NCBI GenBank assembly: GCA_964350645.1
Contig: CAYGJY010000002.1
Span: 161,538-225,537 of the forward strand
Direction: 5' to 3'
Origin: an uncultured Candidatus Saccharibacteria bacterium
GTDB taxonomy: Bacteria; Patescibacteriota; Minisyncoccia; Phycocordibacterales; UBA918
DNA length: 64,000 nucleotides
Of this stretch, positions 34,907 to 56,394 are shown piece by piece. Under the pieces are notes generated by a model, which saw nothing but the letters and a program-made list of their open reading frames with translations, was not told the origin of the DNA and ran no database searches. Position numbers and translations under genes: made by a program. Each line of letters starts with the position of its first letter. Positions within the stretch are counted from its first letter, which is position 1.

Positions 34907-34960
34907 ACGTTATGAGAATAAGTCATTATTTTTAAGTACTTACGATTGTATCATAAGCTT

Positions 34961-35824
34961 ATGTCTGATCAGATTATCCGTTTACGGCTCTTGGTGCTCT
35001 TGTTTCTCACTGCTGCTAGCATGGGCACCTGGGTGGTGCTTGCTGCTCCACTTGATGACTCGAGCTCGTTACTGCAGGTGCATTTTTTAGATGTGGGCCA
35101 GGGAGATGCAATTTTTGTTGCTACGCCTGATGGAGTGCACGTACTGATTGATGGTGGTCGGGATGCGAGTGTCTTGCGGGAGTTAGGGCGAGAAATGTCA
35201 GTGGCAGATCGGAGTATTGATATGGTGGTAGCGACGCATCCAGACGCTGATCATATTGGTGGGTTGGTTGCTGTTTTGGAGCGTTATGACATTGCTAGGA
35301 TTCTTATGACTGAAAATCAGTCAGACAGCCAGGTAGCTACTCGATTTAATGAGGAGATTAATAAAGAAGGCGTCGATGTAGTGTTTGCTCGTCGCGGTCA
35401 GGTGTGGCAGCTGGGGGCTTCAACGACGCTTGAAGTTTTGTTTCCTGAGACTGATCCGAAGGATCTAGAAAGCAATACAAGTTCGATTGTACTGCAGCTT
35501 AAGTATGGTGAAGTTGAGTTTATGTTGACGGGAGATTCACCCAAAAGTATTGAAGAATATTTAGTGCTTCGCGATGGTGAGCATTTAGAGAGTGAAGTGC
35601 TTAAAGTTGGTCACCACGGATCCCGAACTTCAACCTCAGAATTGTTTTTGGGAGAAGTAAATCCACGGTATGCTGTAATTTCAGCTAGTGCTGACAATTC
35701 GTACGGTCACCCACATAGTGAGGTGACGGACATGTTATTTAACAACCGAGTGGAAACGCTGAGCACTGCCGAGTCAGGGACGATCACTTTTTATAGTGAT
35801 GGAGAGGAGGTGTGGCTTGAGTAG
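34961..35824 (+). CDS. ComEC-type metallo-beta-lactamase domain protein (stand-alone)
   Basis: VHFLDVGQGDAIFV, HPDADHIGG, VGHHGS; signal/TM N-terminus. Confidence 0.7.
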   Translation: MSDQIIRLRLLVLLFLTAASMGTWVVLAAPLDDSSSLLQVHFLDVGQGDAIFVATPDGVHVLIDGGRDASVLRELGREMSVADRSIDMVVATHPDADHIGGLVAVLERYDIARILMTENQSDSQVATRFNEEINKEGVDVVFARRGQVWQLGASTTLEVLFPETDPKDLESNTSSIVLQLKYGEVEFMLTGDSPKSIEEYLVLRDGEHLESEVLKVGHHGSRTSTSELFLGEVNPRYAVISASADNSYGHPHSEVTDMLFNNRVETLSTAESGTITFYSDGEEVWLE

Positions 35825-36662: not shown

Positions 36663-36709
36663 ACAAACAAAAAGACCGGCGCCCAAGGGCGCCGGTCTTT
36701 TTGTTTGTC
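36663..36709. terminator. Extended perfect palindromic bidirectional terminator (CCGGCGCC family)
   Basis: acaaacaaaaagaccggcgcc caag ggcgccggtctttttgtttgt. Confidence 0.65.
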
Positions 36710-36952
36710 TTAGATAAGTTTAGCTTTCTTCAGTACTGCGTACGCGCCGTTTTTGGCGATGGTGCGGATTCCCTTGGTAGAAACCTTAACGGTTACATGT
36801 TTATCAATTTCTGGTACGTAAATTCGTTTCTTTTGGAGGTTTGGTGAACGCTTAACTTTGCCACACGGGTTAAACTGCGTCGCACGAGTGCGGTTACTGT
36901 ATCGGCCTCCAATCTGGGTTTTCTTCCCAGTGATGTCGCATTGCTTTGCCAT
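36710..36952 (-). CDS. rpmB: 50S ribosomal protein L28
   Basis: MAKQCDITGKKTQIGGRYSNRTRATQFNP. Confidence 0.9.
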   Translation of the reverse strand: MAKQCDITGKKTQIGGRYSNRTRATQFNPCGKVKRSPNLQKKRIYVPEIDKHVTVKVSTKGIRTIAKNGAYAVLKKAKLI

Positions 36953-37006
36953 ATAAGTATCAAATTAGTGGCGCTATCCTACCACAGCAGTTCATTTTAG
37001 CAAGTC

Positions 37007-37675
37007 ATGACATTCATGCTATGCTATTTTGTATCTATGGAACAAATCATTATCATCATCGCGCTGATCATGTCGATCGTTTTACACGAAATGGCCCATG
37101 GCTACGCAGCCAACTGGCTTGGTGACCCGACCGCTCGGTTACAGGGCAGATTGTCCGGTAACCCGATTGTACACATGGACTTACTTGGTTCAGTGATTAT
37201 CCCAGGACTGCTGTTTTTCTCTCAGGCTGGGATTTTGTTTGGCTGGGCCAAACCAGTCCCGTATAACCCCTATAACCTATCAGATCAAAAATATGGCGAA
37301 GCAAAAGTCGCTGCTGCTGGTCCTGCAGTAAATATACTCCTGGCCTTGATCTTTGCTGGATTAATTCGTCTCGCGCCACTACTTGGATTGCCGGGTTCAT
37401 TTATCGAGATCGCTTCATATATAGTGTATCTCAACATCCTTTTAGCGTTCTTTAACATGATTCCGCTGCCGCCACTTGATGGTTCAAAGATTTTGTTAGC
37501 ATTCTTGCCGTTTGGGGCAGCTATGAAATATCGTGAGCTGATGCGTTTAGTGGAGCGCTATGGTTTGTTTATTACCTTCGCCTTTATCTTCATTTTTATC
37601 AATGTCCTTTGGGGGCCATTTTCAGAGGTGGTTGGAGCAGTATTTACACTGTTCACCGGTTTACGGTTCTTTTGA
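37007..37675 (+). CDS. Site-2 protease family (M50) membrane metalloprotease
   Basis: HEMAHGYAA (HExxH) and NMIPLPPLDGSKIL (N-x-x-P-x-x-x-x-DG). Confidence 0.75.
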   Translation: MTFMLCYFVSMEQIIIIIALIMSIVLHEMAHGYAANWLGDPTARLQGRLSGNPIVHMDLLGSVIIPGLLFFSQAGILFGWAKPVPYNPYNLSDQKYGEAKVAAAGPAVNILLALIFAGLIRLAPLLGLPGSFIEIASYIVYLNILLAFFNMIPLPPLDGSKILLAFLPFGAAMKYRELMRLVERYGLFITFAFIFIFINVLWGPFSEVVGAVFTLFTGLRFF

Positions 37676-37812
37676 TGAATTTTCTATTCATTGTTCTTGG
37701 AATTTGTTTTGTGTAAAGAAACAAATTTGGAACTAAATTCACAATAGTCGTTACTTGCCTTTGTTCATGTATCTTGCAAAATAACCTATTTGTAGTATTC
37801 TTTCGGAGCTTT

Positions 37813-38226
37813 ATGGCAACAATCAATCAATTAACAAAAAATCGTCGACGCGATCCTGAAACGAAATCAAAGCGTGGAGCCCTCCACACTGGTTTCAATA
37901 AGATCAAGAACGCGCCAAACAAATACAACTCACCATTTAAACGTGGTGTGTGTACTCGTGTCACCACGAAGACTCCGCGTAAGCCGAACTCAGCGATTCG
38001 AAAAATCGCTCGTGTGCGTCTCACAAATGGTCAAGAAATTACTGCGTACATTCCTGGTATTGGGCATAGCCTACAGGAGCACTCAGTGGTACTTGTCCGC
38101 GGTGGTCGTGTGAAAGACATTGGAGTCAACTACACAGTTGTACGCGGTAAGTACGATGCTACCGGAGTAGACGCGCGCCGACGAGGCCGCTCACGCTACG
38201 GAGCCAAACGACCAAAGGCTGAATAG
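37813..38226 (+). CDS. rpsL: 30S ribosomal protein S12
   Basis: MATINQL...KPNSAIRK...[18 protein letters not shown]. Confidence 0.95.
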
Positions 38227-38376
38227 AGGCCTCATTATAACTAGTCTATATTCGCTTTAGATTATCGGACGCGGTTCAAGCAGTAATGCTTCGGAACCAA
38301 CGTATGCGAAGAATGAAAAACTGATTTGTCATTTTCTCATTCGCAATCTAACGCATTAGTAACCTAATCATTAGTC

Positions 38377-38850
38377 ATGCGACGACCAATTAAAAAACGA
38401 CCAGTAGTCAATCCAGACATTAAGTTTGCGTCAGTTGATGTGGAACGCCTCATTAACTATGTGATGCTTCGTGGTCAAAAAGAAACAGCTCGCAAAATTG
38501 TGTATGCTGCTTTTGAAGAAATTAAAAATGCCAAGGAAGGTGGTGGTGACCCAATCGAGGTTTTCAACACAGCTCTAAGAAACGCTGGTCCATCAATGGA
38601 AGTTCGCTCACGCCGGGTTGGTGGAGCCAACTATCAAGTGCCTCGTGAAGTTCGCCCTGAACGACGACTGTCACTCTCACTACGATGGCTGATCGGAGCT
38701 GCTCGCGGTGCCAAGGGTATCCCAATGCACAAAGCGCTCGCCAACGAAATTATGCTCGCAGCCAAGGAAGAAGGAGTAGCCGTGAAGAAGAAGGAGGATA
38801 TGCATAAGATGGCGGAGGCTAACCGTGCTTTCGCGCATTTTGCCTGGTAA
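38377..38850 (+). CDS. rpsG: 30S ribosomal protein S7
   Basis: Full-length S7 signature; conserved rpsL-rpsG order. Confidence 0.95.
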
Positions 38851-39056
38851 TTTAGGAGTCGTTAGACGAACTAAATTCCAGTTGCAAATGCGGTGATACC
38901 CCTTGCGGGTGCGCGCACTTCGCTTGGTAAGAAATTCCACAATTGGCGCTGCGCTTCGTTGCCGCACGAAAAATATTCTTCACCGTACCCCAAGTACGAC
39001 TCAGAATATTTTTCGCTAGCGCCTCGCGCAGCATCCAATTCTGAAATTCCTACATG

Positions 39057-39088
39057 AAAAAGCTCGCAGTTAACTGCGAGTTTTTTCG
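39057..39088 (+). terminator. Terminator ending the rpsL-rpsG transcript about 210 nt after rpsG
   Basis: ctcgcag ttaa ctgcgag followed by tttttt. Confidence 0.6.
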
Positions 39089-39238
39089 TGCAAACTTGGT
39101 AGTGCATTCCAAGATAAAATCAATGTTGAGTAACAAGTGTGCTAGAAGTTGTCTTTCTATTTGCCCAATGCTGTAGTTAGGAGTATGTTTTAAATATAAA
39201 CTCAGTCAGCATGAAGTGAGTTCAGAGTAAGAATATAT

Positions 39239-39898
39239 ATGTCAAAAGAAATTATTTTAGATAAAACAAAAAATGAAATTCGAGAAGTAGTCTGCATCAG
39301 ATGTGATAATACTACAAATCATATAGTTTGTGGATCAGTAAAATTAGAATGGCGCAACGAAGATATACAAGGATACGATATCTACGAAACAATACGTTGC
39401 TTAGGGTGTGACAATGTTTCTTTTCGCATTGCATCTGGAAATTCAGAAGACTACTACCACGATGACGAAGGTCATAGCTTTTATCCTGAAACTGAGGAAA
39501 TTTATCCCAGCCGTTTGATGGGTAGAGTGCCTCTTAAAGACATGTATTCTCTACCTGATAAGGTACGATTAATATATAAAGAGACTCATGCGGCATTATG
39601 TACAAAATTGAAAGTTCTAGCTGGAGTCGGCATAAGGGCATTAGTTGAAGCTGTGTGTTCAGAAGAAAAGGCGAAGGGAGGTAATCTTGAGAAAAAGATT
39701 GACGATTTAGTCGAGAAAAATATTCTTACAAAGAAAAATGCTGAAGTATTACATCGTACTCGTCTTTTGGGTAATAAAGCAGCACATGAGAGTAGTGCCC
39801 CCGCAGATTCTGAATTGGATGTTGCTTTTGATATTGTAGAAAATCTTCTTGAAACTGTTTATATTATCCCCAAAAAGGCTGAACGATTAAAATCGTAA
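39239..39898 (+). CDS. Zinc-ribbon plus DUF4145-like protein in a strongly AT-rich segment; defence-island type
   Basis: CIRC...C / CLGC Cys pairs; C-terminal ...LVEKNILTKKNAEVLHRTRLLGNKAAHES...DIVENLLETVY matches the DUF4145 pattern (R.LGN.AAHE); local GC about 30 percent. Confidence 0.55.
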   Translation: MSKEIILDKTKNEIREVVCIRCDNTTNHIVCGSVKLEWRNEDIQGYDIYETIRCLGCDNVSFRIASGNSEDYYHDDEGHSFYPETEEIYPSRLMGRVPLKDMYSLPDKVRLIYKETHAALCTKLKVLAGVGIRALVEAVCSEEKAKGGNLEKKIDDLVEKNILTKKNAEVLHRTRLLGNKAAHESSAPADSELDVAFDIVENLLETVYIIPKKAERLKS

Positions 39899-40014
39899 AT
39901 TTAGAATTATGTGTGCATATTTATACTAATTCTAATTAAAACTATAGGACAATAATCGTATAAAAGTTCTCGTTTGTTCGATAGTAAACTGGTATTTAGT
40001 TTATACTTACAAAT

Positions 40015-40362
40015 ATGAATACTCTTCTCAAGCTCGAAATGATTATACTGATAGTGCTGGCCGTGTGGCTGTTTAGTCTGATGGGTTTTGCCTGGTGGTG
40101 GTTTGCGGTGTTGTTTTTAGTGCCAGATGTTGGGATGATCGGGTATGTTGCTTCACCGAAGGTAGGGGCGTGGACATACAACCTCACGCATCACCTTGGT
40201 CTGGCGACGCTGATAATCATCGCCGGGTCTGAGCTGGCTATTCCGTGGGTAGAGCTCGCGGGCATCATTATGCTCGGGCACTCCGCCTTTGACCGAGTGC
40301 TTGGCTATGGTCTGAAGTACCCCGATGCATTTAAACACACGCATCTAGGTTGGCTTAAGTAG
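40015..40362 (+). CDS. Small polytopic membrane protein
   Basis: Three to four TM helices; Trp-rich. Confidence 0.4.
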   Translation: MNTLLKLEMIILIVLAVWLFSLMGFAWWWFAVLFLVPDVGMIGYVASPKVGAWTYNLTHHLGLATLIIIAGSELAIPWVELAGIIMLGHSAFDRVLGYGLKYPDAFKHTHLGWLK

Positions 40363-40404
40363 TTTTGTCTAAAAAAGAGACCTTTTCGGGTGTATAGTTA
40401 AAGT

Positions 40405-40719
40405 ATGAAAAACCTTATTAAAGAGCACATTGAGTATTTAAAAGATAATCCAGAAGGGTATTGGTTTAAGCGGAAGCTCTATGGCTACGGCTGGACACCA
40501 GCAACTAAAGAGGGTTGGGTGGTGACTCTAGGAGCTATTGCGGTGATTGTTGGTAACGCAGTGCGTTTTGAACGCGGTGGGTATGCCGACGGTGACGTTG
40601 TACTACAGATGTTGGCACCGACGTTCTTAGCTGTCGCCGTTTTGTTGTACTTTTGTTTTACAAAAGGTGAAAAGCCAAAGTGGCAGTGGGGCAGTGACAT
40701 TGCAGAAGATAAAGATTAG
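40405..40719 (+). CDS. Small membrane protein
   Basis: Two TM helices. Confidence 0.35.
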   Translation: MKNLIKEHIEYLKDNPEGYWFKRKLYGYGWTPATKEGWVVTLGAIAVIVGNAVRFERGGYADGDVVLQMLAPTFLAVAVLLYFCFTKGEKPKWQWGSDIAEDKD

Positions 40720-40767
40720 GTTTTTGGTCTTTGTTTTGCTATAAATAATCACCTCAAAAAACAGGAG

Positions 40768-41229
40768 ATGATGATGGATAGGCCATCGTGGTTGCCGCCT
40801 TATCGGTGGAAGTACCTGCTCCTCGCGTGGTTTTTTAACGGGGTAGCAGTGTTCATTATTAACCAAAACGAAGGAGGTGTCGCTGGAGCTAGCATGGCAG
40901 CACTTGTTCAGTTCGGCGTTTCGACTTTGGCTGGATATAGTGTTCCGTTCTGTCAAAAACATGTTTTTGACAGGCCAATTGCCAAAGCATATTTCTACGG
41001 ATCGCTCACTATGGCGTTGGTGATCGCCAGTGCTGGTGCGCTCGCTCACTTTATATTTCAAACGCCTGACTATTGGTCGACCGTCGCTTGGAACTTCTGG
41101 CTCAACCTAGTTGGCGGGTTTGTGTTGGTAAGCTGCAAGCGCTCGAATGCGTTTGTCACCCGTCGCCTACGACATTCAGTGGGTCTAAAGGTGGCAATGA
41201 CTTATTATCGGTTTTGGAAGAGGCTCTAG
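40768..41229 (+). CDS. Membrane protein of unknown function
   Basis: caggaga RBS; four TM helices. Confidence 0.4.
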   Translation: MMMDRPSWLPPYRWKYLLLAWFFNGVAVFIINQNEGGVAGASMAALVQFGVSTLAGYSVPFCQKHVFDRPIAKAYFYGSLTMALVIASAGALAHFIFQTPDYWSTVAWNFWLNLVGGFVLVSCKRSNAFVTRRLRHSVGLKVAMTYYRFWKRL

Positions 41230-41346
41230 TTGCGTGTGTATTCTGCGACTAGAGCCTCTGTGTTTTTGATTATACAAAGTGCAGAAAGCCGCCGGTAGAA
41301 GAGTGGGAGTCTTCATTTCCGACGGCCTTTTTAGTCAATCGTCGAG

Positions 41347-41697
41347 CTAGGTTTTTAGGCCTAACGTGGTGAAGCTAAATCCAATCAGTATTGACCCGCT
41401 TGATCCTGGTATGACGAATTTGATCAGTTGGTGGGTCACCACGCCGTTTGTCTCGGCTTTTCCAACGACTGACTGCCAGACTTTCCTGGCTTCCCCGCCA
41501 ATCGAAGTAATTTGGTGACACCCGTCTGGCAGAGTAAGACTCGATCGATACTGATCAAGCTTTGTCACCAGATCAGTAGCTTGCTCTAAGGTCTGGCAAA
41601 TCGTAGCGCCAGTGATCCATACCCATCTCCCGTCTTCAGCTTTGGCGGGTGAAGCGATACAGCTGAAGCAGAAAAATAACAATACAATCCGTCCCAT
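41347..41697 (-). CDS. Small secreted protein
   Basis: Signal peptide MGRIVLLFFCFSCIASPAKA. Confidence 0.4.
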   Translation of the reverse strand: MGRIVLLFFCFSCIASPAKAEDGRWVWITGATICQTLEQATDLVTKLDQYRSSLTLPDGCHQITSIGGEARKVWQSVVGKAETNGVVTHQLIKFVIPGSSGSILIGFSFTTLGLKT

Positions 41698-41767
41698 TTT
41701 GTCCTCCGGTATTCGTCTGTGGGTGATGAATTAGGTATACCTCTAAATGCTCAAAGCAGCAATACTT

Positions 41768-42853
41768 TTATTGATTAGGCCTTCCGCCAACGCGTTTGGC
41801 AACCTTGAGTAAGATAAAGAGAATCAGGAAGAGGAGGCTGAGTTGTACTAAGACCGGGTGACCAAGATAAAGTGAGAAGATGAGTAAGATGAAGGTGTAG
41901 ATTCGGTCGATGATAGTAACAAAGATGTCAGTGATTTTTTGGAACCAGCCGACAGAAGCCCCTTGTTCTTTTGGTGTGTCTTGGCTACGGGAAACAGAGC
42001 CAAAACCATTTTCGTTGGTTACAGTGTCGAGATTGCTGGCTGTTTCTGAGGTAGTGCTCGACGAGCTGGCTGATTCGCTTGGCGAATCAGCCAGCTCGTC
42101 TTCAGTCGGCGTGAGCACCTCCCCGTCAGTGCTCCGGGCACTGCGGTAGGCATCGATTCTTCTCTTTGTTTCATTGATACTTTCGGTAAAGGTAGACAGA
42201 ATGTTATCGGCCCGACTTTCGGTTAGGTACTGCTCGAGGCCGTCAGGTTCGCTACCGTTTTGATCAACATTCACGTTAGTTTCTTGTGTGGCCTCAGGTG
42301 GATCTTCGTTGTCTGATTCGGTTGCGGTCGTCTCTGGTGGTGCTGGATCGTTTGGATCAAGTGGGTCGGTGCCATCAGCTTTTTCTTTGTTGTCACTTAT
42401 ACCATCGTTGTCGTCGTCTTGATCATCAGTATTGCCGATACCGTCACTATCAGTATCACGATCGACAAAGACTGTGTCCTCAGCCAACGCTGATACAACT
42501 TCAGCAGTCTTGGTGGTGCTGCCGACTTTGCTTAACTCAATTCGTGAGAGTGACGCAGTGATAGTGTGTTCACCAAAGCTTGGCGCCCAGTCTGCCCAGG
42601 TTTCGATAATTCGGTTATCAAGGGCGGATACGTTGGTTCGTTCGATGAGTTCACCATTGTCATAGAATTCCACTCGACCAGATAAATCAGCACCGGTGTT
42701 GTTGCGGATGGCGACGTAGATCCTGGTGGTGTCACCAACAAATAGTACGTCACGGTCATACCACAGACCTTGTACAATCCCGGCATTAAATTCTTGGGCA
42801 GAGACAGCTGAAGCGGATATGATAAATATAAGGACGGCACATAGCCATTTCAT
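41768..42853 (-). CDS. Surface protein with thrombospondin type-3-like Ca-binding repeats and a C-terminal TM anchor
   Basis: Signal peptide; DTDSDGIGNTDDQDDDNDGISDN repeats; Ser-rich linker; C-terminal hydrophobic helices. Confidence 0.55.
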   Translation of the reverse strand: MKWLCAVLIFIISASAVSAQEFNAGIVQGLWYDRDVLFVGDTTRIYVAIRNNTGADLSGRVEFYDNGELIERTNVSALDNRIIETWADWAPSFGEHTITASLSRIELSKVGSTTKTAEVVSALAEDTVFVDRDTDSDGIGNTDDQDDDNDGISDNKEKADGTDPLDPNDPAPPETTATESDNEDPPEATQETNVNVDQNGSEPDGLEQYLTESRADNILSTFTESINETKRRIDAYRSARSTDGEVLTPTEDELADSPSESASSSSTTSETASNLDTVTNENGFGSVSRSQDTPKEQGASVGWFQKITDIFVTIIDRIYTFILLIFSLYLGHPVLVQLSLLFLILFILLKVAKRVGGRPNQ

Positions 42854-42895
42854 ATGATCTTAGTATACCGAAATTTCTCGTAAAATTATGATATT

Positions 42896-43555
42896 GTGAC
42901 CACAATGAAGATTACAGAGATTTATAAAAAATATCCGATCAACCAGGGCTTGCAGCGACATATGGTGCAGGTCGCAGCAGTTGCAAAGCAAATCTGCGAT
43001 CATATCTCAGTACCCGTCGATACTCATTTTGTGGTGAGTGTGTGCTTAGTTCATGACCTTGGTAATCTGGCTAAGATAAAGTTTGGCCTAGGTCATGATT
43101 ACCACTTTGAGCCCGAAGGTCTAACTTACTGGCAAGAGAAACAAACTGAAGTGTGGGAGACGATTAGTCGTGATGAACATGAAGTGACCAATTATTATCT
43201 GGATGATTTGGGTTTGTCACCTGAAATAAAAGCGGCAGTTAATGTAATGGGACTTTCAGAATTATCCGAGACAGCTATACATAGATCGACTGAACACCAG
43301 ATTATTACCTACGCTGATATGCGAGTAGGGTTGCACGGTATTGTCTCTGCCGGAGAGCGTATGGCTGATCTTAAAAGACGCTATGTGCCCGAACGCCATA
43401 CTGGGGCAGAGATCGATGAATGTACAGACGTATTGCTTGCTATGGAAAGGAAGTTGTTTGCTGGGTCAGGTATCAACCCGGCAGATATTACCGATGTTTC
43501 GACCGCTGAGATTCAGAAAGAATTGTTGGAGTGGAAGATTGAGACGGTGCAGTAA
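42896..43555 (+). CDS. HD-domain phosphohydrolase
   Basis: H...HDLGN...D motif set; GTG start at 42896 or ATG at 42905. Confidence 0.6.
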   Translation: MTTMKITEIYKKYPINQGLQRHMVQVAAVAKQICDHISVPVDTHFVVSVCLVHDLGNLAKIKFGLGHDYHFEPEGLTYWQEKQTEVWETISRDEHEVTNYYLDDLGLSPEIKAAVNVMGLSELSETAIHRSTEHQIITYADMRVGLHGIVSAGERMADLKRRYVPERHTGAEIDECTDVLLAMERKLFAGSGINPADITDVSTAEIQKELLEWKIETVQ

Positions 43556-43585
43556 TGGACCGGCGCCGAAGGTGCCGGTCATAGT

Positions 43586-45097
43586 TTATTGCCGCGCCTG
43601 TAACTTCTCAACTGGGGCAAAGTCATCGGTGAGAAGAATTTCAGAAGTTAAATCAAATGTAGTCAGGTCAAGTGCAAGGTTTTGCACAGTGCTTGTTCCG
43701 CCACCAGTGAAGGTAATGTGCTGGTCGGTAAAATTGATAGGAGCACCTCCTTTGCGGGCGACCAATATTACATTCTGCAACTGTGAGAGTTCGTTTTTTT
43801 CAATGGCATAGGCTCGTGTATTTGGAAACACTGCCAGTAGTGTTTTTGTGACTGATCCAAATAGTGATGGGATGCTTGTTTCTGGGATACCGACAAAGTT
43901 TACTAGTAAGACTCCCTCGTCATGTAAGTGTTCTGAAATTCGTTGATAAAACTCAAGAGTGGTCAAATGAAATGGGGCTGCCAAATCCGTCCCAAAGGCA
44001 TCAGCAAAGATGACGTCGTACCTCTTATTCGTCCCCTGTAGAAATACCCGCGCATCCATTGGGTAGTTGGTAATTCGCGAGGTGTCAGATAGATCGAAAT
44101 ATTCCTGAGCCAAATCAAATAAGATTGGCTCAATTTCAACAACGTCGATATTGAGTTCGGGATTTGCTGCGCTGAGCGTGCGCGGGATAGTATACGCTCC
44201 GCCACCGATTAATAAAAAATCCTCAGCTGAGGGTACTAAGATGTTATAGAATTCTGCAAACTGCGTGTAAGCAAACGGTAGTTCTTTTGAGGTAAGGTAG
44301 ATGGCGGAAGAGTTATTAGTATCACGGTTAAGTAGTCGGCCAGCCCGATTGTTTATCAAAACATCTCTGATTTTGATTGAGCTGTAGAGACCATCACTAT
44401 AATACAGATAAGAAGCCTGGTTACGTGTGTGGATGAGGTTGATGCTTCCGAGTAAGAGTATGCTGACACCAATGATTAGTGCTATCCAAATGAGATGTCG
44501 GACCTGTCTGAGATAGAGCGGCATTAGCAGACCAAGAATAATGAGGCAGGCACCTGATGTCATAATTGTATTTTGGACGCCGAGGGTGGGAATGAGCCAA
44601 AAGCCAGTGAGAAGACTACCCAAAATACTACCAGCAGTGCCCCAAAAAAAAGTTTTACCGACAACACTACCGATGTGTTCGGTTGGGGTATTGATTGATT
44701 GAATTTTTATAATGTACGGCGAGACTATTCCCAATAAAAAAGCCGGTACAAAGAATAGGGCTAGGCTAAAGACAAGAGGTCCGAGCTGTGGCCCGAGTTG
44801 TGCAGCGGCTGCGGGTAAGACAAAAAGGGCGACTAGCTCTAAGAGTAAAATCAAAACACCACTGAGGGTGATTATTTTGTACAGCTCAGATATAGATTGC
44901 TTTGAATCAGCCCGTTTACCGCCGTACCAATAACCGCAACTGAGGGCGGCGAGAATGATCGATAACACACTCGAAAAAACATAAAGTGATGAACCGTAAT
45001 AAGGTGAAAGTAGGCGAACCGCTGCAACTTCAAGAATAAGGACAGCTGCACCAGTAATAAATACGCTGACAAACAGGGCAGAATTTAGCTTACGCAT
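43586..45097 (-). CDS. Membrane-anchored spermidine synthase-like (PABS fold) protein
   Basis: N-terminal ~7 TM helices; C-terminal IGGGAYTIP, VDVVEIEP, DVIFADAFG motifs. Confidence 0.7.
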   Translation of the reverse strand: MRKLNSALFVSVFITGAAVLILEVAAVRLLSPYYGSSLYVFSSVLSIILAALSCGYWYGGKRADSKQSISELYKIITLSGVLILLLELVALFVLPAAAAQLGPQLGPLVFSLALFFVPAFLLGIVSPYIIKIQSINTPTEHIGSVVGKTFFWGTAGSILGSLLTGFWLIPTLGVQNTIMTSGACLIILGLLMPLYLRQVRHLIWIALIIGVSILLLGSINLIHTRNQASYLYYSDGLYSSIKIRDVLINNRAGRLLNRDTNNSSAIYLTSKELPFAYTQFAEFYNILVPSAEDFLLIGGGAYTIPRTLSAANPELNIDVVEIEPILFDLAQEYFDLSDTSRITNYPMDARVFLQGTNKRYDVIFADAFGTDLAAPFHLTTLEFYQRISEHLHDEGVLLVNFVGIPETSIPSLFGSVTKTLLAVFPNTRAYAIEKNELSQLQNVILVARKGGAPINFTDQHITFTGGGTSTVQNLALDLTTFDLTSEILLTDDFAPVEKLQARQ

Positions 45098-45177
45098 TGG
45101 CTAATAGTAGCAAACTTTATCGTCAGAGGAACGATGTGTGGTTGAGTTGTGCTGAGAATGCGCTAGGATAGAGCGCT

Positions 45178-46662
45178 ATGACACAGCCGCAAGGACTTAT
45201 TACCTTTAATGACGTATCGTACGAGCACGACGTCACCAAACCAATTTTGATTGAGTCGTCATTTTCGGTGCGCCGGGGCGCTAAGTTTACGTTGATGGGT
45301 CAAAACGGTGCTGGGAAAACTACACTCTTTAAATTGATTACTGGAGAGCATCAGCCAGATGAAGGCATGATCCATATTGCGACGCGTACCAGTATTGCGG
45401 TATCAAGACAAGTTATTCCGCGAGCAGAGCTTGAACTCACGTTGCGAGAATTTTTTGCCAAGTGCTTTACGGAGACCGTGTATGATATCGACCCGAAGAT
45501 TGATGCTATTTTGGAGGTGGTGAATTTAACACCGACAAATCCAGAGGTTGCAAAGAATTTTAAAGAGCGGATTATTGGGAGTTTTTCTGGTGGTCAGCAA
45601 GCGCGACTTCTACTTGCGTCAGCTTTGATTCAAAAACCAGATATTCTACTTCTTGATGAACCGACTAATAACCTCGACTATGAAGGAATTGAACATCTGA
45701 CCCAGTTTCTCAAAGACTACCGTCAGACAGTAATTGTGATTTCTCATGATTCTGATTTCTTGAATGCCTTTACTCACGGTGTGCTCTATCTCAATACCCA
45801 AACAAGAAAGATCGAACAATATAATGGAAACTATCACGACGTGGTTAAAGAAATTGGTGCTCAAGTAGAAAAAGAACGCCGGAAAAATGCGCAGTTAGAA
45901 AAAGAAATTCAAGCCAACAAAGACAAAGCTAACTTCTTTGCGAATAAAGGTGGCGGTATGCGTGCGGTTGCCAAGCGGATGCGTGAGAAAGTCGATGAAT
46001 ATGAAGATAACAAAGTTGAAGTGCGCAAAGAAGATCGAACAATTCGTGACTTCACTATCCCCACTCAGGCAGGTGTACCGCTCGACGTACTGAAGTTGAG
46101 CTCGTATCAAGTGATTAAAAACCATAACCCAAAAGTGGTCGAGTGTGACTTGACCCTTAAGCGTGGTCAGCATTGGCGTATCATTGGTCCAAATGGTATT
46201 GGAAAAACGACATTGCTTGAGTCATTAGCTTCAGGGCATGCGGCCGGTGAACACGTCGCTTCGGGAGTGAAGATTGGCTATTACCGGCAAGATTTTTCTA
46301 ACTTAGATTTTGAAGAAACAGTCGCGGCGTGTCTGATGAAGGCGATGGAGAGTAAGCTTGAGGAGAAAATGCGTAGTGTCGCTGCGGGGTATTTACTTAC
46401 TGGCGACGTGATTAAAACAAAGATCGGGTTACTCTCCGAAGGTCAGAAAGGTTTGGTCGCATTTGCTCGACTACAACTGCTCGAGCCAGGTTTGCTGATT
46501 CTTGATGAGCCGACCAATCACATCAATTTTCGACATATCCCCGTTATCGCTAAAGCGCTTCATGCCTTTGAAGGTGCTATGATAGTAGTCTCGCACGTTG
46601 AAGATTTTGTCGAACAGATTAGAATCGATGAGGTGCTAGATTTAAATAAGAAACATAAATAA
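45178..46662 (+). CDS. ABC-F family ATPase (two ABC domains, no TMD)
   Basis: GQNGAGKTT / LSGGQQARL / LLLDEPTN, then IGPNGIGKTT / LSEGQKGLV / LILDEPTN. Confidence 0.8.
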   Translation: MTQPQGLITFNDVSYEHDVTKPILIESSFSVRRGAKFTLMGQNGAGKTTLFKLITGEHQPDEGMIHIATRTSIAVSRQVIPRAELELTLREFFAKCFTETVYDIDPKIDAILEVVNLTPTNPEVAKNFKERIIGSFSGGQQARLLLASALIQKPDILLLDEPTNNLDYEGIEHLTQFLKDYRQTVIVISHDSDFLNAFTHGVLYLNTQTRKIEQYNGNYHDVVKEIGAQVEKERRKNAQLEKEIQANKDKANFFANKGGGMRAVAKRMREKVDEYEDNKVEVRKEDRTIRDFTIPTQAGVPLDVLKLSSYQVIKNHNPKVVECDLTLKRGQHWRIIGPNGIGKTTLLESLASGHAAGEHVASGVKIGYYRQDFSNLDFEETVAACLMKAMESKLEEKMRSVAAGYLLTGDVIKTKIGLLSEGQKGLVAFARLQLLEPGLLILDEPTNHINFRHIPVIAKALHAFEGAMIVVSHVEDFVEQIRIDEVLDLNKKHK

Positions 46663-48734: not shown

Positions 48735-50804
48735 TTATTTTCGTTTCAGGGTTTTTGAAAGAATGATTGAGACGACGAAAATGAGGGCAGAAAGACCTAA
48801 AAACTTAAGATCAATCACACCACGTGAGATGCCGCCTGTTCGTAATTCTTCAACATCAAGTGAGGCTCCGACCGCCACAAAGGTAGCAATACCAAGTAGC
48901 GTACCGACGAAGTTTGCTAGGACAAACGGAATAAATTTTATCTTGAGAATTCCAGCGGCAAAACTGACTAGGTCAAAAGGAAGAAAAATGAGGCGCGTAA
49001 TCAGGACTGATTCAAAAGGATTGTCTCGCAGCGGTTGTATCCACGAACCGAGAGCTGTCTTTTCTAGCTTGAGATCACCACCAAAGAAGCGTCCAATGCC
49101 ATAGGCAGCAGCAGCTGAGATATTAGCGGCGATAATGGTCAGGAGCGTCCCAACCCAAAAGCCAAAGAAGACACCCGAGAGAATCGTCAGCGCAGTCCCG
49201 GGAAAAAAGACCAGTGGTCGCAGGGTGTACGCTGCGATGTAGATCAGTGCCCCCCATGCTGACAAGGCAATAAAATCAAAAATCACAAAAGCGGTTTCAA
49301 ATGCTGACAGGTTCTGGGCTTGTTGGTACATGTAGAGATAGTACAGACCAACTGCCCAGAGCGCCGCGACGATAACTTTCAAGGCGTGTTTTTTGACGAA
49401 GTGGGTAAGGTCGGTTTTGAGATGAGCGATTTGGGTCGCAAAGAAATAGTCACCGAGTTTTTTGATAATCAGTGAGTAGGTCGGGTAGGCGAAGATAGTG
49501 TTGCGCAGTTTCCACATCGAAATCTTTTGATCGATGGCGAGTGTGAACACGCTGAGGATTTCACCCGCTGCTGGACCAGCAATATGCGCACCAAGTACTC
49601 GGCCGCTGAGACGCTTTGCGATCACGATTGCGATGCCATCAGTAGTGTCTTCGGTTTTGGCCCGATCGTTGGCACTAAAAGGGGCTTCAATGCGAAAAAT
49701 GTTTTCTTCACCATAGTGCTCGAGTGCTTCCGTGTATGAAAGACCGACTTGCGCCACCTCGGGAGTGATATAGGTGACTTTTGGGACGGCTTTGTTGTCA
49801 CGCACTTTGAGAAGGCCTTTGCTGATTACCCGTGTGACCACTTGTCGAGCAATATTATCCGCGGTATGAGTGAACTTGAGACGCTGCGACACGTCCCCAA
49901 GGGCGTAGACTGATGCGTTGGTGGTGCGGTACTGGCTATCAACTTTGATACCGTAGGGTTCGCTCTGAATACCGGCGACTTCAAGACCATTTGGTAGGTT
50001 CGGTACTCGGCCAATCGCGACGAGCACTTTATCAAATTGGACTGACAATGATCCAGTCACTACTTTACCTTCTTTGCGGTCAAAAATCGCGACGCGATTT
50101 TTGACCTCGCTTAGATGCGCGTTCAGCTCAATCCTGATACCCAGTTCTTTAAACTTCCGCTGTACTATTGGACGGATAGCTGGGTCCTCCAGGCGGGCAA
50201 ACTCACTATCGATGGAGGCGATAGTGACGTGGCTACCGAGCATAGCAAACGCTTGACCAAGCTCCATGCCAATTGGTCCAGAGCCAATGACGAGTAGTTT
50301 CTCGGGGATACTTTTGAGGTCAAAGACGTTTTGGTTGGTGAGAACATCAGCGGGGTTGAGTCCGGGTACACTGATCATCCGTGGACTAGATCCAGTGGCG
50401 ATGATAGCTGTTTTAAAGGTGTAGGTAGCGTCGGCAACTTTAATAGTTTTTGTGCCAACAAATTCGGCTTCACCCATGATGACGTCGATGCCGATTTTCT
50501 CAAACACGTCTGGTGTCTCCTCGGCTAAGATCTCATCAATGATGTTACGAACGTAGGCAAACGCGTCGGTGCGAAAAGCTGCGCTTTTCACACCTTCACC
50601 CGCCACCTGCGTCGCCCGATGATACTCTCGCGCGTGATGCAAGAGTGCTTTGCTCGGCACACAGCCAGTGTTGGTACACTCACCGCCCATATGCTCACGT
50701 TCTATAAGAAGTACTTTCTTGCCGACTTTAGAGAAACCGACGGCTGAGGTAAGGCCGCCTGAGCCGGCCCCGATTACTATGACGTCGTAGTGTGTGTCTG
50801 ACAT
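48735..50804 (-). CDS. Fusion protein: class-I pyridine nucleotide-disulfide oxidoreductase (DLD/mercuric-reductase-like) plus a C-terminal DedA/TVP38 membrane domain
   Basis: GAGSGG FAD site, redox-active GGECTNTGCVPSK, second Rossmann GSGPIG; C-terminal about 220 aa with multiple TM helices and DedA-like segments. Confidence 0.7.
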   Translation of the reverse strand: MSDTHYDVIVIGAGSGGLTSAVGFSKVGKKVLLIEREHMGGECTNTGCVPSKALLHHAREYHRATQVAGEGVKSAAFRTDAFAYVRNIIDEILAEETPDVFEKIGIDVIMGEAEFVGTKTIKVADATYTFKTAIIATGSSPRMISVPGLNPADVLTNQNVFDLKSIPEKLLVIGSGPIGMELGQAFAMLGSHVTIASIDSEFARLEDPAIRPIVQRKFKELGIRIELNAHLSEVKNRVAIFDRKEGKVVTGSLSVQFDKVLVAIGRVPNLPNGLEVAGIQSEPYGIKVDSQYRTTNASVYALGDVSQRLKFTHTADNIARQVVTRVISKGLLKVRDNKAVPKVTYITPEVAQVGLSYTEALEHYGEENIFRIEAPFSANDRAKTEDTTDGIAIVIAKRLSGRVLGAHIAGPAAGEILSVFTLAIDQKISMWKLRNTIFAYPTYSLIIKKLGDYFFATQIAHLKTDLTHFVKKHALKVIVAALWAVGLYYLYMYQQAQNLSAFETAFVIFDFIALSAWGALIYIAAYTLRPLVFFPGTALTILSGVFFGFWVGTLLTIIAANISAAAAYGIGRFFGGDLKLEKTALGSWIQPLRDNPFESVLITRLIFLPFDLVSFAAGILKIKFIPFVLANFVGTLLGIATFVAVGASLDVEELRTGGISRGVIDLKFLGLSALIFVVSIILSKTLKRK

Positions 50805-52361: not shown

Positions 52362-54542
52362 ATGGCACGAGCATTTCCAATCGCAAAACTACGAAACTTC
52401 GGGATCGTAGCCCACGTTGACGCGGGTAAGACCACCACCTCTGAACGCATCCTTTTCTATACCGGGATGAGTCACAAAATCGGCGAGGTACACGACGGGG
52501 CAACCGTCACCGACTGGATGGAGCAAGAACGTGAGCGCGGTATCACCATCACCGCGGCGGCGATTTCTTGTAACTGGGCAAAAACCCTTGAGACAGATCG
52601 CAAGAACAAGGACAAGCAACACACCTTTAACATCATCGATACTCCAGGGCACATCGACTTTACCGCAGAGGTAAAGCGATCGATGCGTGTACTTGACGGT
52701 GCTGTCGTCGTATTCGACGGCGCGGCTGGTGTAGAGCCACAAACCGAAACCAACTGGGGCTACGCTGATGAAGCTGGTGTACCACGAATTTGTTTTGTAA
52801 ACAAAATGGACAAGCTGGGTGCTGATTACAACGCTTCAGTAAAGTCTATCGAAGAGCGACTCTCTAAAAAAGCTGTCCGGATTCAACTCCCGATCGGGGC
52901 AGAAGACGCACTCTCTGGTGTGGTTGATTTGATCACGATGAAGGCCTATCGGTTTGCTGGTGAGATGGGTATGGAGGTGACTGAAGAAGAGATTCCTGAG
53001 AATATGGTTGAAGACGCTAAGAAGTGGCGCGCTGAAATGATCGAACGCGTTGTTGAACACGACGACACGCTGATGGAAGCGTTTCTTGAAGGGACCGAGC
53101 CAACGCTTGAAGACCTCAAGAAGACCTTGCGAAAGGCGGTATTGGCTAACGAAATTTTTCCAGTCATGACTGGTTCAGCACTGAAGAACATCGGTGTGCA
53201 GCTCGTGCTTGACGCGGTAGTTGATTATCTGCCAGCACCAACTGACCTCCCACCAACGCACGGTCATGATCCAGATGATGAAGAAACTATTATCGAACGA
53301 CTGCCAACAGACGAAGACCCATTCAGCGCTCTTGTATTTAAACTACAGGACGACAAGTTCGTTGGGCAGCTGGCTTTCTTCCGGGTGTATTCAGGTACGG
53401 TGAAGTCTGGTTCATACATTTTGAACTCTTCAACGGGAAACAAGGAACGAATCGGACGAATTGTTCGTCTGATGGCTGACAAGCGAGAAGAAGTAGACGA
53501 AGTATATGCGGGCGAGATTGCGGCCGCTGTAGGGATCAAGGAAGTAAAGACATCGCACACTATTTGTGACGAAGCGAAGCCAATTGTACTCGAGCAAATT
53601 ACGTTCCCAGCCCCAGTCGTTGCTGTGCGTGTTGAGCCAAAGACTAAAAATGACCAAGAAAAAATGGGTGTAGCCTTAAAGCGCCTGTCAGATGAGGATC
53701 CGACGTTTGTCGTATCAACTGACGAAGAAACGCTCGAAACCATCATTGCTGGTATGGGTGAGTTGCACCTCGACATCATTGTTGATCGTATGAAACGAGA
53801 GTTTGGAGTAGAGGCCAACATTGGTCAACCACAAGTAGCGTACCGAGAAACAATCCAACGTGAAGCTGAAGCCGAGCATAAATACATTAAGCAGTCTGGA
53901 GGACGCGGACAGTACGGACACGTCAAGATTCGCATCAAGCCACTGGTGCCGCTCGCGAAAGATGAAAACGGGGAAGATGAGAAGGTTGCTAAGAACGTTA
54001 CTCGCGATGATCACTTTGAATTCATCAACAGCATTAAGGGAGGAGTCATTCCACAGGAATACATTCCAGCTGTCATGAAGGGAGCTAAAGAAGCGATGGG
54101 TCGCGGATTTGTCGCTGGCTATAAAATGGAAGATGTATCAGTTGAACTCTTTGATGGTTCATTCCACGATGTTGACTCGAGTGAAATCGCCTTTAAGTTG
54201 GCTGGTATTAACGCCTTTAAGGATGCAGCTGCAAAGGCGAGTCCGGTTATCCTTGAGCCAATCATGAAGGTTGAAGTACGAACACCAGATGAATACATGG
54301 GAGACATTCAAGGGAATATTTCATCGAAGCGCGGTCAGATTGAAGGCTCAGAAGAAATGGGAGGCAAGACAATCGTCAACGCCAAGGTGCCACTATCAGA
54401 AATGTTTGGTTACACCAACTCACTGCGTTCAATGACTCAAGGTCGTGCGAGTATGACGATGGAGTTTGATCACTATGAAGTGGTCCCACCAAACGTGGCT
54501 GAAGAGATTAAGAAGGCGAGAGGGGTGAAAGCAGAGGCATAA
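52362..54542 (+). CDS. fusA: Elongation factor G
   Basis: [15 protein letters not shown]...; full-length EF-G. Confidence 0.95.
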
Positions 54543-54553
54543 TCTCTGTGCTC

Positions 54554-54600
54554 TGAACATACAAAAGGCCGGCGCTTCGCGCCGGCCTTTTGTATGTTCA
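54554..54600. terminator. 47-nt perfect palindromic terminator between fusA and tuf
   Basis: tgaacatacaaaaggccggcgc ttc gcgccggccttttgtatgttca. Confidence 0.7.
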
Positions 54601-54826
54601 GTTTCTCGATCTAGCTTGCAAAAATCAGCCGGTTTGCTAAGATTGCCCCACCGCACCGGCATCTGGCTGGGTCGGAGTATACATATTGTTTGCTCTTTCA
54701 CACTCACGTGTACTAAGAGATAGCGTAACTGTTCTCGTGACGCTTTCCCTCAGTGCTCGTGCATGGCTTTTCATATGAAAAGCAGCCGTGTGCGGATTAT
54801 TAATTAACTAAATTTTATTTAGTATT

Positions 54827-56014
54827 ATGGCAGATTTTGATCGATCAAAGCCGCACATTAACGTAGGTACTATTGGTCACGTTGACCACGGTAAGACTAC
54901 GCTTACGGCTGCGATCCTAACAACCCTTAAAGCGAAGGGAAATGGCTATGACGCAAACGTCAAGGCAGTAGAAGATATTGATAAAGCGCCAGAAGAAAAG
55001 GCGCGCGGTATTACTATTTCACTTTCACATAGTGAGTACGAAAGTCCAAACCGACACTACGCACACATCGATGCGCCAGGTCACGCCGACTATATTAAGA
55101 ACATGATTACTGGTGCTGCCCAAATGGACGGTGCAGTTCTCGTAGTTGCAGCAACTGACGGAGCAATGCCACAAACTCGTGAGCATGTTCTGCTTGCAAA
55201 GCAGGTTGGTGTACCAAACATCATCGTGTTCCTCAACAAGTGTGACATGGTAGATGACGAAGAAATGCTTATGCTCGTTGAAGAAGAACTTCGTGAACTT
55301 CTCACTAAGAATGGATTCGACGGTGTCAACGCGCCAATCATTCACGGTTCTGGTTTGAAGGCACTTGAAGGTGACGCAGCCTACCAAGAGAAAGTGGTTG
55401 AACTCGTCGATGCGATGGATTCATATTTCCCACTGCCTGAGCGTGAACTCGACAAACCATTCCTTATGCCAGTTGAGGACATCTTCTCAATTGAAGGACG
55501 CGGTACAGTTGTAACTGGTCGTGTAGAACGAGGAGCAGTTAAGGTTGGTGAGGAAATTGAAATCGTCGGCATGAAGCCAACTGCTAAGACTACAGTTACT
55601 GGAGTTGAAATGTTCAACAAGCAACTAGATGCAGCGCAAGCTGGAGACAATGCTGGTATTCTCCTTCGTGGAACGAAGAAAGAAGACGTGCATCGTGGAC
55701 AGGTACTCGCGAAGTCAGGTTCTGTAACTCCACACACTGAGTTCGAAGCTGAGGTGTACGTACTTGGAAAAGAAGAAGGCGGACGACACACCCCATTCTT
55801 CTCAGGCTACAAACCACAGTTCTATATCCGAACCACTGACGTAACTGGAGATGTTACCCTCGCTGAAGGTACTGAAATGGTCATGCCAGGTGATACTGCA
55901 ACTTTCAAAGTGAAACTGGTTGCTCCAGTAGCTCTCGAAGACCAGCAAAACTTTGCGATTCGTGAAGGTGGTAAGACAGTTGGAGCTGGTGTTGTAACTA
56001 AGATCGTTGCGTAA
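54827..56014 (+). CDS. tuf: Elongation factor Tu
   Basis: [14 protein letters not shown]...DCPGHADY...NKCDMV. Confidence 0.95.
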
Positions 56015-56037
56015 GCAATCGCTAACTACACACTATT

Positions 56038-56394
56038 ATGGCTACAAACACATCATCTAAATCAAAGAAAGACGCAGCGGCTGGCGAAATCCAGAAGCTT
56101 CGTATTCGTGTTCGCGCTTATGAGCACAAGATTCTTGACGCTTCAGTCAAGCAGATTACTGACACAGCCGCTCGCTTTGATGCGACTGTTGTTGGACCAA
56201 TTCCGCTACCAACTGAAATCAAGAAGTACACAGTAAACCGTTCAACGTTCGTCCATAAGGATGCGCGAGAACAATTCGAGATGCGCATGCACAAACGTGT
56301 CATCGACATCATGAATCCGAGCGGCAAAGTCATTGAGGCTTTGACCAACCTGTCACTGCCCTCTGGCGTGAACATTGATGTAAAGATGATCTAA
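56038..56394 (+). CDS. rpsJ: 30S ribosomal protein S10
   Basis: KLRIRVRAYEHKILD...GPIPLPT; conserved tuf-rpsJ order. Confidence 0.9.
   Translation: MATNTSSKSKKDAAAGEIQKLRIRVRAYEHKILDASVKQITDTAARFDATVVGPIPLPTEIKKYTVNRSTFVHKDAREQFEMRMHKRVIDIMNPSGKVIEALTNLSLPSGVNIDVKMI

Follow-up and report, generated by a model that had tools for sequence, protein, structure and literature searches.

A distant RAZR (PD-T7-4)-like zinc-ribbon/HEPN gene in a strain-variable slot downstream of rpsG of a Patescibacteria bacterium

The 64,000-nt stretch of contig CAYGJY010000002.1 analyzed here (the window) comes from an uncultured bacterium of the Patescibacteria and carries, downstream of rpsG, an open reading frame (ORF, 39239-39898) for a protein of 219 amino acids (aa) in which an N-terminal zinc ribbon is joined to a C-terminal DUF4145 domain. 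We consider that this ORF is probably an antiphage gene of the type known as RAZR or PD-T7-4 that stands alone and was acquired horizontally, and that it would act by the RAZR mechanism. Comparisons with homologs, profile models and related genomes established the architecture of the protein, the invariance of its putative metal ligands and catalytic residues, its homology to the RAZR model, and the stand-alone, mobile and strain-variable behavior of its gene. The single-gene RAZR system itself is known; what is new is a distant member of it in Patescibacteria. An initial annotation of the region had proposed a defense module made up of the DUF4145 gene and the three small membrane-protein genes that follow it. 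The defense reading was reasonable, as the protein matches the PADLOC model of PD-T7-4/RAZR, a validated defense gene (PMC13017515); the grouping with the membrane-protein genes was not upheld.

Architecture of the RAZR-like protein

The ORF is annotated as a gene in public assemblies of the same organism, and NCBIfam assigned no name to its product. The two Cys pairs pointed out in the initial annotation are C19-x2-C22 and C54-x2-C57, all four residues being invariant in an alignment of 44 homologs of the window protein. By sequence, the N-terminal domain is a Cys4 zinc ribbon with C19, C22, C54 and C57 as its predicted metal ligands. The C-terminal domain was assigned to Pfam DUF4145 (PF13643; HEPN clan), with residues 117-201 aligned to profile positions 4-88 of 88 and a significant score of 60.1 bits (E=2.3e-16; gathering cutoff 23.1 bits). 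It contains the motif RLLGNKAAHE (residues 175-184), of which R175, N179 and H183 were likewise invariant among the 44 homologs. Within the linker between the two domains, P90, R92 and R96 were invariant, and Y89 and G95 were conserved at 90% or more. Mean pairwise identity was 47% in the zinc-ribbon region, the most variable domain, and 62% in the HEPN region.

The AlphaFold2 model of the protein (predicted local distance difference test score, pLDDT, 89) has an all-beta N-terminal domain with strands over residues 2-68, followed by a short strand (85-89) and by five helices over 107-214, the lowest confidence falling on residues 91-100 within the linker. Among solved structures, the best Foldseek matches were HEPN toxins (7AE6, 7AE8, 6M6U and 1YLM; probability 0.9-1.0). 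One of them, 7AE6, is the HEPN reference also used in the RAZR paper (PMC13017515). The coordinates of the gene, its parts and the surrounding features are given in Table 1.

Table 1. Features of the rpsG-downstream region, in window coordinates
Feature	Position	Strand	Basis or remark
Strain-variable segment	38850..40393	.	1544 nt here vs 221 nt in L044
Palindromic hairpin, likely bidirectional terminator of the rpsL-rpsG transcript	39053..39090	.	19-nt arms, 89% complementary
AT-rich cargo tract (RAZR-like gene + spacers)	39091..40014	.	between rpsG terminator and DUF4260
RAZR-like gene, zinc ribbon + linker + DUF4145/HEPN RNase domain (predicted)	39239..39898	+	219-aa ORF
Cys4 zinc-ribbon domain, residues 1-68	39239..39442	+	Cys codons at 39293, 39302, 39398, 39407
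Inter-domain linker, residues 69-106	39443..39556	+	homolog alignment
DUF4145/HEPN helical domain, residues 107-219	39557..39895	+	five modeled helices, Foldseek
Predicted catalytic motif R175-LLG-N179-KAA-H183 (R-x7-H)	39761..39787	+	invariance + RAZR spacing
DUF4260 membrane protein, 115 aa, native flank of slot	40015..40362	+	Pfam DUF4260 E=3e-41; GC 51%, third-codon-position GC (GC3) 61%
104-aa small membrane protein	40405..40719	+	no Pfam or PADLOC match
153-aa small membrane protein	40768..41229	+	no Pfam or PADLOC match

Relation to RAZR and other HEPN proteins

PD-T7-4 was discovered in Escherichia coli by functional selection, was described as 'Zn finger-HEPN' and is a single ORF of ~220 codons spanning contig positions 34-694 (PMC9519451). 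The name RAZR (ring-activated zinc-finger RNase) replaced this designation in 2026 (PMC13017515); the sources of the system are E. coli UMB1727 and Klebsiella variicola (Vassallo 2022, PMC9519451; Zhang et al. 2026, PMC13017515). In RAZR, a conserved linker connects a Cys4 zinc-ribbon domain to a DUF4145 domain, which is a divergent HEPN RNase; the zinc-finger domain determines trigger specificity and is the most variable part, and the linker (residues 66-79) is short, conserved and length-sensitive and packs on the HEPN domain (PMC13017515). R146 and H154 are needed for defense, which is abolished by alanine substitutions, and a C-terminal helix-loop-helix (residues about 180-219) comes after the catalytic helix (PMC13017515). 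Twenty-four copies of RAZR surround ring-shaped phage proteins, either portal or the putative recombinase Gp77, and the activated enzyme cuts single-stranded RNA non-specifically, which halts translation and results in abortive infection (Abi) by a single gene (PMC13017515).

Judging from the PADLOC model and the published description, the window protein is a distant member of the RAZR/PD-T7-4 kind, outside its core family. Specifically, the PADLOC PD-T7-4 model (PDLC04109) matched residues 17-198 at profile positions 14-169 of 211 (E=7.9e-9, 33.3 bits), and this match spans both the Cys-rich N-terminus and the DUF4145 domain. Eight of ten other relatives scored 22-36 bits with the same model, and DUF4145 proteins from enterobacterial plasmids scored 0-22 bits, no better than the window family. 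Because the PADLOC score is low, we place the protein on a distant branch rather than in the core PD-T7-4 family. From the offset at the end of the alignment (198 versus 169, i.e., 29), R175 and H183 would fall on profile positions 146 and 154; the distance between them, eight positions, is that between R146 and H154. This R-x7-H spacing lies beyond the canonical HEPN range of R-x4-6-H, yet it is the same as in RAZR. The likeness extends to the length of the protein (219 aa versus ~220 codons), to the order of Cys4 zinc ribbon, conserved linker and DUF4145/HEPN domain, to a zinc-finger domain that varies more than the HEPN domain, and to a single gene, found in variable or mobile contexts, that lacks any conserved partner. 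Unlike RAZR, the window gene is hosted by a bacterium of the Patescibacteria (Candidate Phyla Radiation, CPR) and has no adjacent integrase. Searches of PDB sequences with phmmer and profiles returned chance matches only, and the RAZR structures 9Y9C and 9Y6U were not among the Foldseek matches to the PDB.

The toxins of HEPN-MNT systems (PDB 7AE6/7AE8, 6M6U and 5YEP) provide the closest solved folds for the C-terminal helical domain, and in both cases the catalytic Arg and His (predicted, in the window protein) share one helix. In contrast to these systems, however, no MNT antitoxin gene accompanies the window protein, which has an additional N-terminal zinc ribbon (a putative sensor), a motif spacing outside the canonical range and only 11-18% sequence identity to the toxins. 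DUF4145 has also been listed as 'in operon with R-M' (restriction-modification), together with zinc-ribbon fusions, by Anantharaman et al. 2013 (PMC3710099). The window protein shares the Pfam domain with these proteins, and some members of its clade directly follow type I hsdM/hsdS genes (see below), whereas the window copy and most of its close relatives have no R-M neighbor.

Homologs and their gene neighborhoods

A profile search of 1.84 billion cluster representatives (50% identity clusters) retrieved 5568 clusters at E<=1e-3. Stricter thresholds of E<=1e-10 and E<=1e-30 left 2662 and 962 clusters, the latter drawn from across the bacteria. Close relatives, at 58-82% aa identity and nearly all of 218-222 aa, derive mostly from metagenome-assembled genomes (MAGs) of Patescibacteria, labeled as Paceibacterota, Nomurabacteria and Saccharibacteria. 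Relatives were also found on 29 plasmids, in one deposited phage genome and in two viral predicted structures.

All window proteins from L28 (36710-36952) to EF-Tu (54827-56014) were compared by tblastn with 38 homolog loci from other species. The RAZR-like gene was found in 38 of 38, and no DUF4260, 104-aa gene, 153-aa gene, S12 or S7 was found in any; nor was any neighbor gene common to these loci. Similarity at the DNA level between the window and the homolog loci was restricted to the coding sequence, and a search for conserved cassette ends found no DNA similarity past it in any locus. In 30 of 37 loci, the homolog had a higher AT content than its flanks. Its context differed from genome to genome: type I R-M methylase and specificity domains were the only recurrent families among the flanking proteins (6 of 130), and R-M genes adjoined the homolog in about 5 of 36 loci. 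With a significant DUF4145 match and varied contexts in which type I R-M is the sole recurrent neighbor, the grounds that the initial annotation had named for giving up a defense role did not materialize.

A sub-group of homologs, with ~55% identity to the window protein, lies within type I R-M operons. In loci L010 (159-3253), L012 (328-3449) and L030 (2605-8311), the homolog begins 3 nt past a gene for an HsdM-HsdS fusion, and L030 also has HsdR upstream; in L022 (7881-10669) it overlaps the end of hsdM. A Paceibacterota MAG (L005, 9247-10657) has a homolog of 74% identity that begins 2 nt past a Hypoth_Ymh gene, which encodes a HEPN-family domain, so that two HEPN-type genes stand in tandem. 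On an Enterobacter kobei plasmid (L041, 601-1943 and 5968-6729), two distinct DUF4145 genes are separated by 4.7 kb; one adjoins a RelE/Phd toxin-antitoxin pair, and an XRE regulator gene precedes the other.

Strain polymorphism and the variable slot after rpsG

The S7 comparison placed the window genome among Kaiserbacteria/Paceibacterota. A sister strain, represented by independent assemblies from two runs of the same project (L044/L045), aligned with the window at 98% identity on both sides of the RAZR-like gene (blastn; L044 1-2176 with 36673-38849 and L044 2398-8013 with 40394-46000). Only 221 nt separate rpsG from the 104-aa gene in this strain. Since they replace positions 38850-40393, the sister strain lacks the RAZR-like gene and DUF4260 and keeps the last two small genes. 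Each of the two alleles is present in at least two independent assemblies.

Two genomes from related species (L048 and L049; S7 aa identity 77-79%) have the order L28-M50-S12-S7-[cargo]-DUF4260. Their cargo (L048 3660-4316 and L049 3946-4587) consists of unrelated AT-rich ORFans of 218 and 213 aa with an N-terminal hydrophobic segment and a small ORF alongside, at 33% GC against a background of 45-49%; these are possibly unknown cargo or defense genes. As both genomes keep DUF4260 behind unrelated cargo, DUF4260 is the native flank, and the variable part is the slot between the rpsG terminator and DUF4260. A different gene was found after rpsG in each of four further genomes of the lineage, and in all eight lineage genomes L28-M50-S12-S7 is kept and followed by a different gene each time. 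The slot is therefore variable, but it is not demonstrably a defense island, because its alternative occupants in L048, L049 and the other related genomes gave no informative Pfam or PADLOC family.

The borders of the variable segment have peculiarities of their own. In its last 8 codons (38826-38850), the rpsG of the window shows synonymous divergence from the strain that is otherwise 98% identical, and a 14-nt exact copy of the sister strain's rpsG 3' terminus (CACTTCGCTTGGTA, 38916-38929) lies 66 nt past the rpsG stop of the window. This has the look of a scar left at the 3' end of rpsG by recombination or insertion. On the other side, a stretch of 14 nt immediately before the 104-aa gene, overlapping its ATG, is in one strain the reverse complement of that in the other (ATAGTTAAAGTATG at 40394-40407 versus CATACTTTAACTAT at L044 2397-2410), exactly at the point where the 98% identity restarts.

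Base composition, transcription and the downstream membrane-protein genes

The RAZR-like gene has 35.9% GC and a GC3 of 24.5%, in a window of 46.6% GC. The AT-rich tract around it (39100-40014) averages 33.9%, ranging over 23-42% in 120-nt windows with local minima of 23-29%. The contrast of about 30 versus 45 percent GC given in the initial annotation was thus roughly right. Within the region, the DUF4145 gene and its spacers (~39090-40015) are AT-rich, whereas the three small genes, at 45-51% GC, are not, so only the DUF4145 gene is compositionally foreign.

The gene lies on the strand of rpsG, starting 388 nt beyond it. Two hairpins follow the rpsG stop (38850), at 38967-39015 and 39053-39090. 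According to a terminator scan, the second is preceded by an A-run and followed by a T-run; it is 85% conserved in the sister strain and probably terminates the rpsL-rpsG transcript. Because the AT-rich tract begins directly after this hairpin, the RAZR-like gene is probably transcribed alone. No convincing sigma-70-type promoter was found upstream of it by a scan that does not cover promoters of this phylum. Scans for Rfam families and tRNAs gave no match near the locus; there is no tRNA-type integration site. A 15-nt inverted repeat (38869-38883/39987-40001, 14 of 15 positions complementary) brackets, almost exactly, the span from the rpsG stop to the DUF4260 start. Repeats of this kind were expected by chance in ~6% of Markov simulations, none was found in the other loci and L048 and L049 have no equivalent; its role as a cassette end is unproven. 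A minus-strand ORF of 78 aa (38871-39107), called in public assemblies, overlaps the rpsG relic and both hairpins. It has no counterpart in the spacer of the sister strain and is probably not a gene.

The three downstream ORFs are real, co-directional and each endowed with hydrophobic segments, as the initial annotation had it; the first is a DUF4260 protein and the other two belong to no recognized family. The 104-aa and 153-aa genes have 93-100% aa identity in the sister strain, which is without the RAZR-like gene, and are backbone neighbors outside the RAZR-like system. DUF4260 is a neighbor as well, not a component of the system. Its inclusion in a module did not hold, given that it is a syntenic native gene, that the slot upstream of it holds unrelated genes in related species and that the validated relative is a single gene.

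Proposed mode of action and alternative explanations

By analogy with E. coli RAZR, the zinc ribbon would act as the infection sensor and bind a large ring-shaped phage assembly such as the portal. Binding to the ring would curve pre-formed oligomers and thereby align the HEPN domains of neighboring protomers so that they become active; composite R175/H183 sites would then cleave single-stranded RNA (mRNA, tRNA and rRNA) non-specifically. The cleavage of RNA would stop translation and abort the infection. The three downstream membrane-protein genes would have no role in this process.

Several observations weigh against assigning the window protein to the RAZR type. Its PD-T7-4 match is weak (33 bits), and the alignment ends at profile position 169, leaving the last 42 positions of the model (170-211) unmatched. 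From this end point, the C-terminal helix-loop-helix of RAZR appears to have no counterpart here; the model of the window protein has a single long helix (190-214) within the 36 residues after H183. Ahead of the catalytic motif, the window protein has ~26-29 residues more than the PD-T7-4 profile and RAZR, and by PADLOC profile coordinates the additional residues fall between the zinc ribbon and the catalytic motif. Foldseek E-values to the HEPN toxins are also weak (at least 0.04). Regarding genomic context, neither a known defense gene nor an integrase was found within 10 kb of the gene, and other homologs follow gyrA, ligA or an aminoacyl-tRNA synthetase gene, several of them standing between housekeeping genes. 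Finally, the trigger, oligomeric state and RNase activity proposed above for the Patescibacteria clade are extrapolated from RAZR.

The neighborhoods of the homologs bring up a different role, in which the clade proteins work with the Hsd complex, for instance as a back-up RNase toxin if restriction fails, and the window copy is the solitary remnant of a type I R-M accessory. We regard this as unlikely. The homologs placed 3 nt past fused HsdM-HsdS genes or overlapping hsdM, the type I domains as sole recurrent neighbors and the operon association listed in 2013 all favor it, but R-M genes adjoin a small share of the homologs, the closest relatives (L003-L009, 58-78% identity) are without them and none lies near the window copy. 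R-M operons, moreover, often harbor nested defense genes that do not depend on R-M function. In the validated family member, one gene suffices for defense (PMC13017515). A HEPN gene of the selfish or toxin type that plays no part in phage defense, either the toxin of an unrecognized toxin-antitoxin pair or the addiction gene of a decayed mobile element, would fit the HEPN-MNT toxins being the closest solved folds, the AT-rich, strain-variable gene that moves on its own, and the DUF4145 gene beside the RelE/Phd pair in the Enterobacter plasmid. We think this quite improbable, as the 38 loci have neither an MNT gene nor another small ORF resembling an antitoxin conserved alongside the gene, and as the strictly conserved N-terminal zinc ribbon, which the PD-T7-4 match includes, argues for a sensor domain and not a bare toxin.

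The two remaining explanations concern the genes on either side. A four-gene defense module, with the small membrane proteins serving for example as membrane effectors, is suggested by the co-directional, closely spaced arrangement and by the joint absence of DUF4260 and the DUF4145 gene from the sister strain. It is nevertheless very unlikely and at odds with the comparative data: none of the small genes stands beside any of the 38 homologs or among the recurrent neighbor families, the second and third are kept without the DUF4145 gene in L044/L045, and DUF4260 is kept without it at the same place after the rpsG slot in L048/L049. The GC3 of the DUF4145 gene (24.5%) also departs from that of the membrane genes (45-61%), none of which matches PADLOC. 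As for a housekeeping RNA-processing enzyme co-expressed with rpsL-rpsG, the position downstream of rpsG on its strand and the RNase-type domain speak for it; yet two hairpins, one with terminator features, intervene after rpsG, the codon composition is foreign, the sister strain with 98% identity is without the gene, and the gene next to rpsG is another one in each of the eight lineage genomes. The presence/absence data contradict this explanation, and we give it hardly any credence. The reading as a stand-alone RAZR-type defense gene is the one that we retain.

Other observations in the window

The MBL-fold (metallo-beta-lactamase-fold) protein encoded at 34946-35824 (+) matched the PADLOC models LmuA, RT-associated MBL and Avs1a with E-values down to 7e-29. 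This, the only other PADLOC match within 10 kb of the RAZR-like gene, is probably a fold-level match and not a defense gene, since the gene is conserved and syntenic in the lineage, related genomes having a Lactamase_B gene at the same place before L28. The str operon is in two parts, rpsL-rpsG (37774-38850) and fusA-tuf-rpsJ (52362-56394), which lie 13.5 kb apart. The gap is occupied by unrelated genes, namely for membrane proteins, a TSP3-repeat protein, an HD protein, a fusion of a major facilitator superfamily (MFS) protein and spermidine synthase, ABC-F, an aldo-keto reductase and an FAD oxidoreductase. The 689-aa protein at 48735-50804 (-), by its precomputed Pfam assignments, combines a pyridine-nucleotide-disulfide oxidoreductase (MerA/lipoamide-dehydrogenase-like) with a C-terminal membrane domain of the VTT/DedA type.

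Implications for defense in Patescibacteria

A bolder proposal is that the Patescibacteria zinc-ribbon-DUF4145 clade is a mechanistically distinct variant of RAZR and that the slot after rpsG is a lineage-specific hotspot for single-gene defense. We consider it improbable, although not far-fetched. Because of its longer linker and the apparent lack of the C-terminal helix-loop-helix, the clade could differ in assembly geometry or in the class of trigger, the phages in question being those of ultra-small episymbionts. If the slot were such a hotspot, the AT-rich ORFans of ~215 aa with an N-terminal membrane helix in L048/L049 would be undescribed defense genes.

For annotation, these comparisons correct a tempting call of a four-gene module. 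Within one population, they also show strains that differ cleanly in the presence or absence of the gene, and they supply natural variants of zinc finger and linker for probing how ring geometry activates the enzyme. They further mark a variable slot after rpsG in which other small defense genes could be sought. To our knowledge, few defense systems are documented in Patescibacteria. Our results suggest that a predicted single-gene abortive-infection RNase of the RAZR type is widespread in these bacteria and moves between their lineages, which would carry a mechanism elucidated in E. coli in 2026 over to a very different region of the tree.

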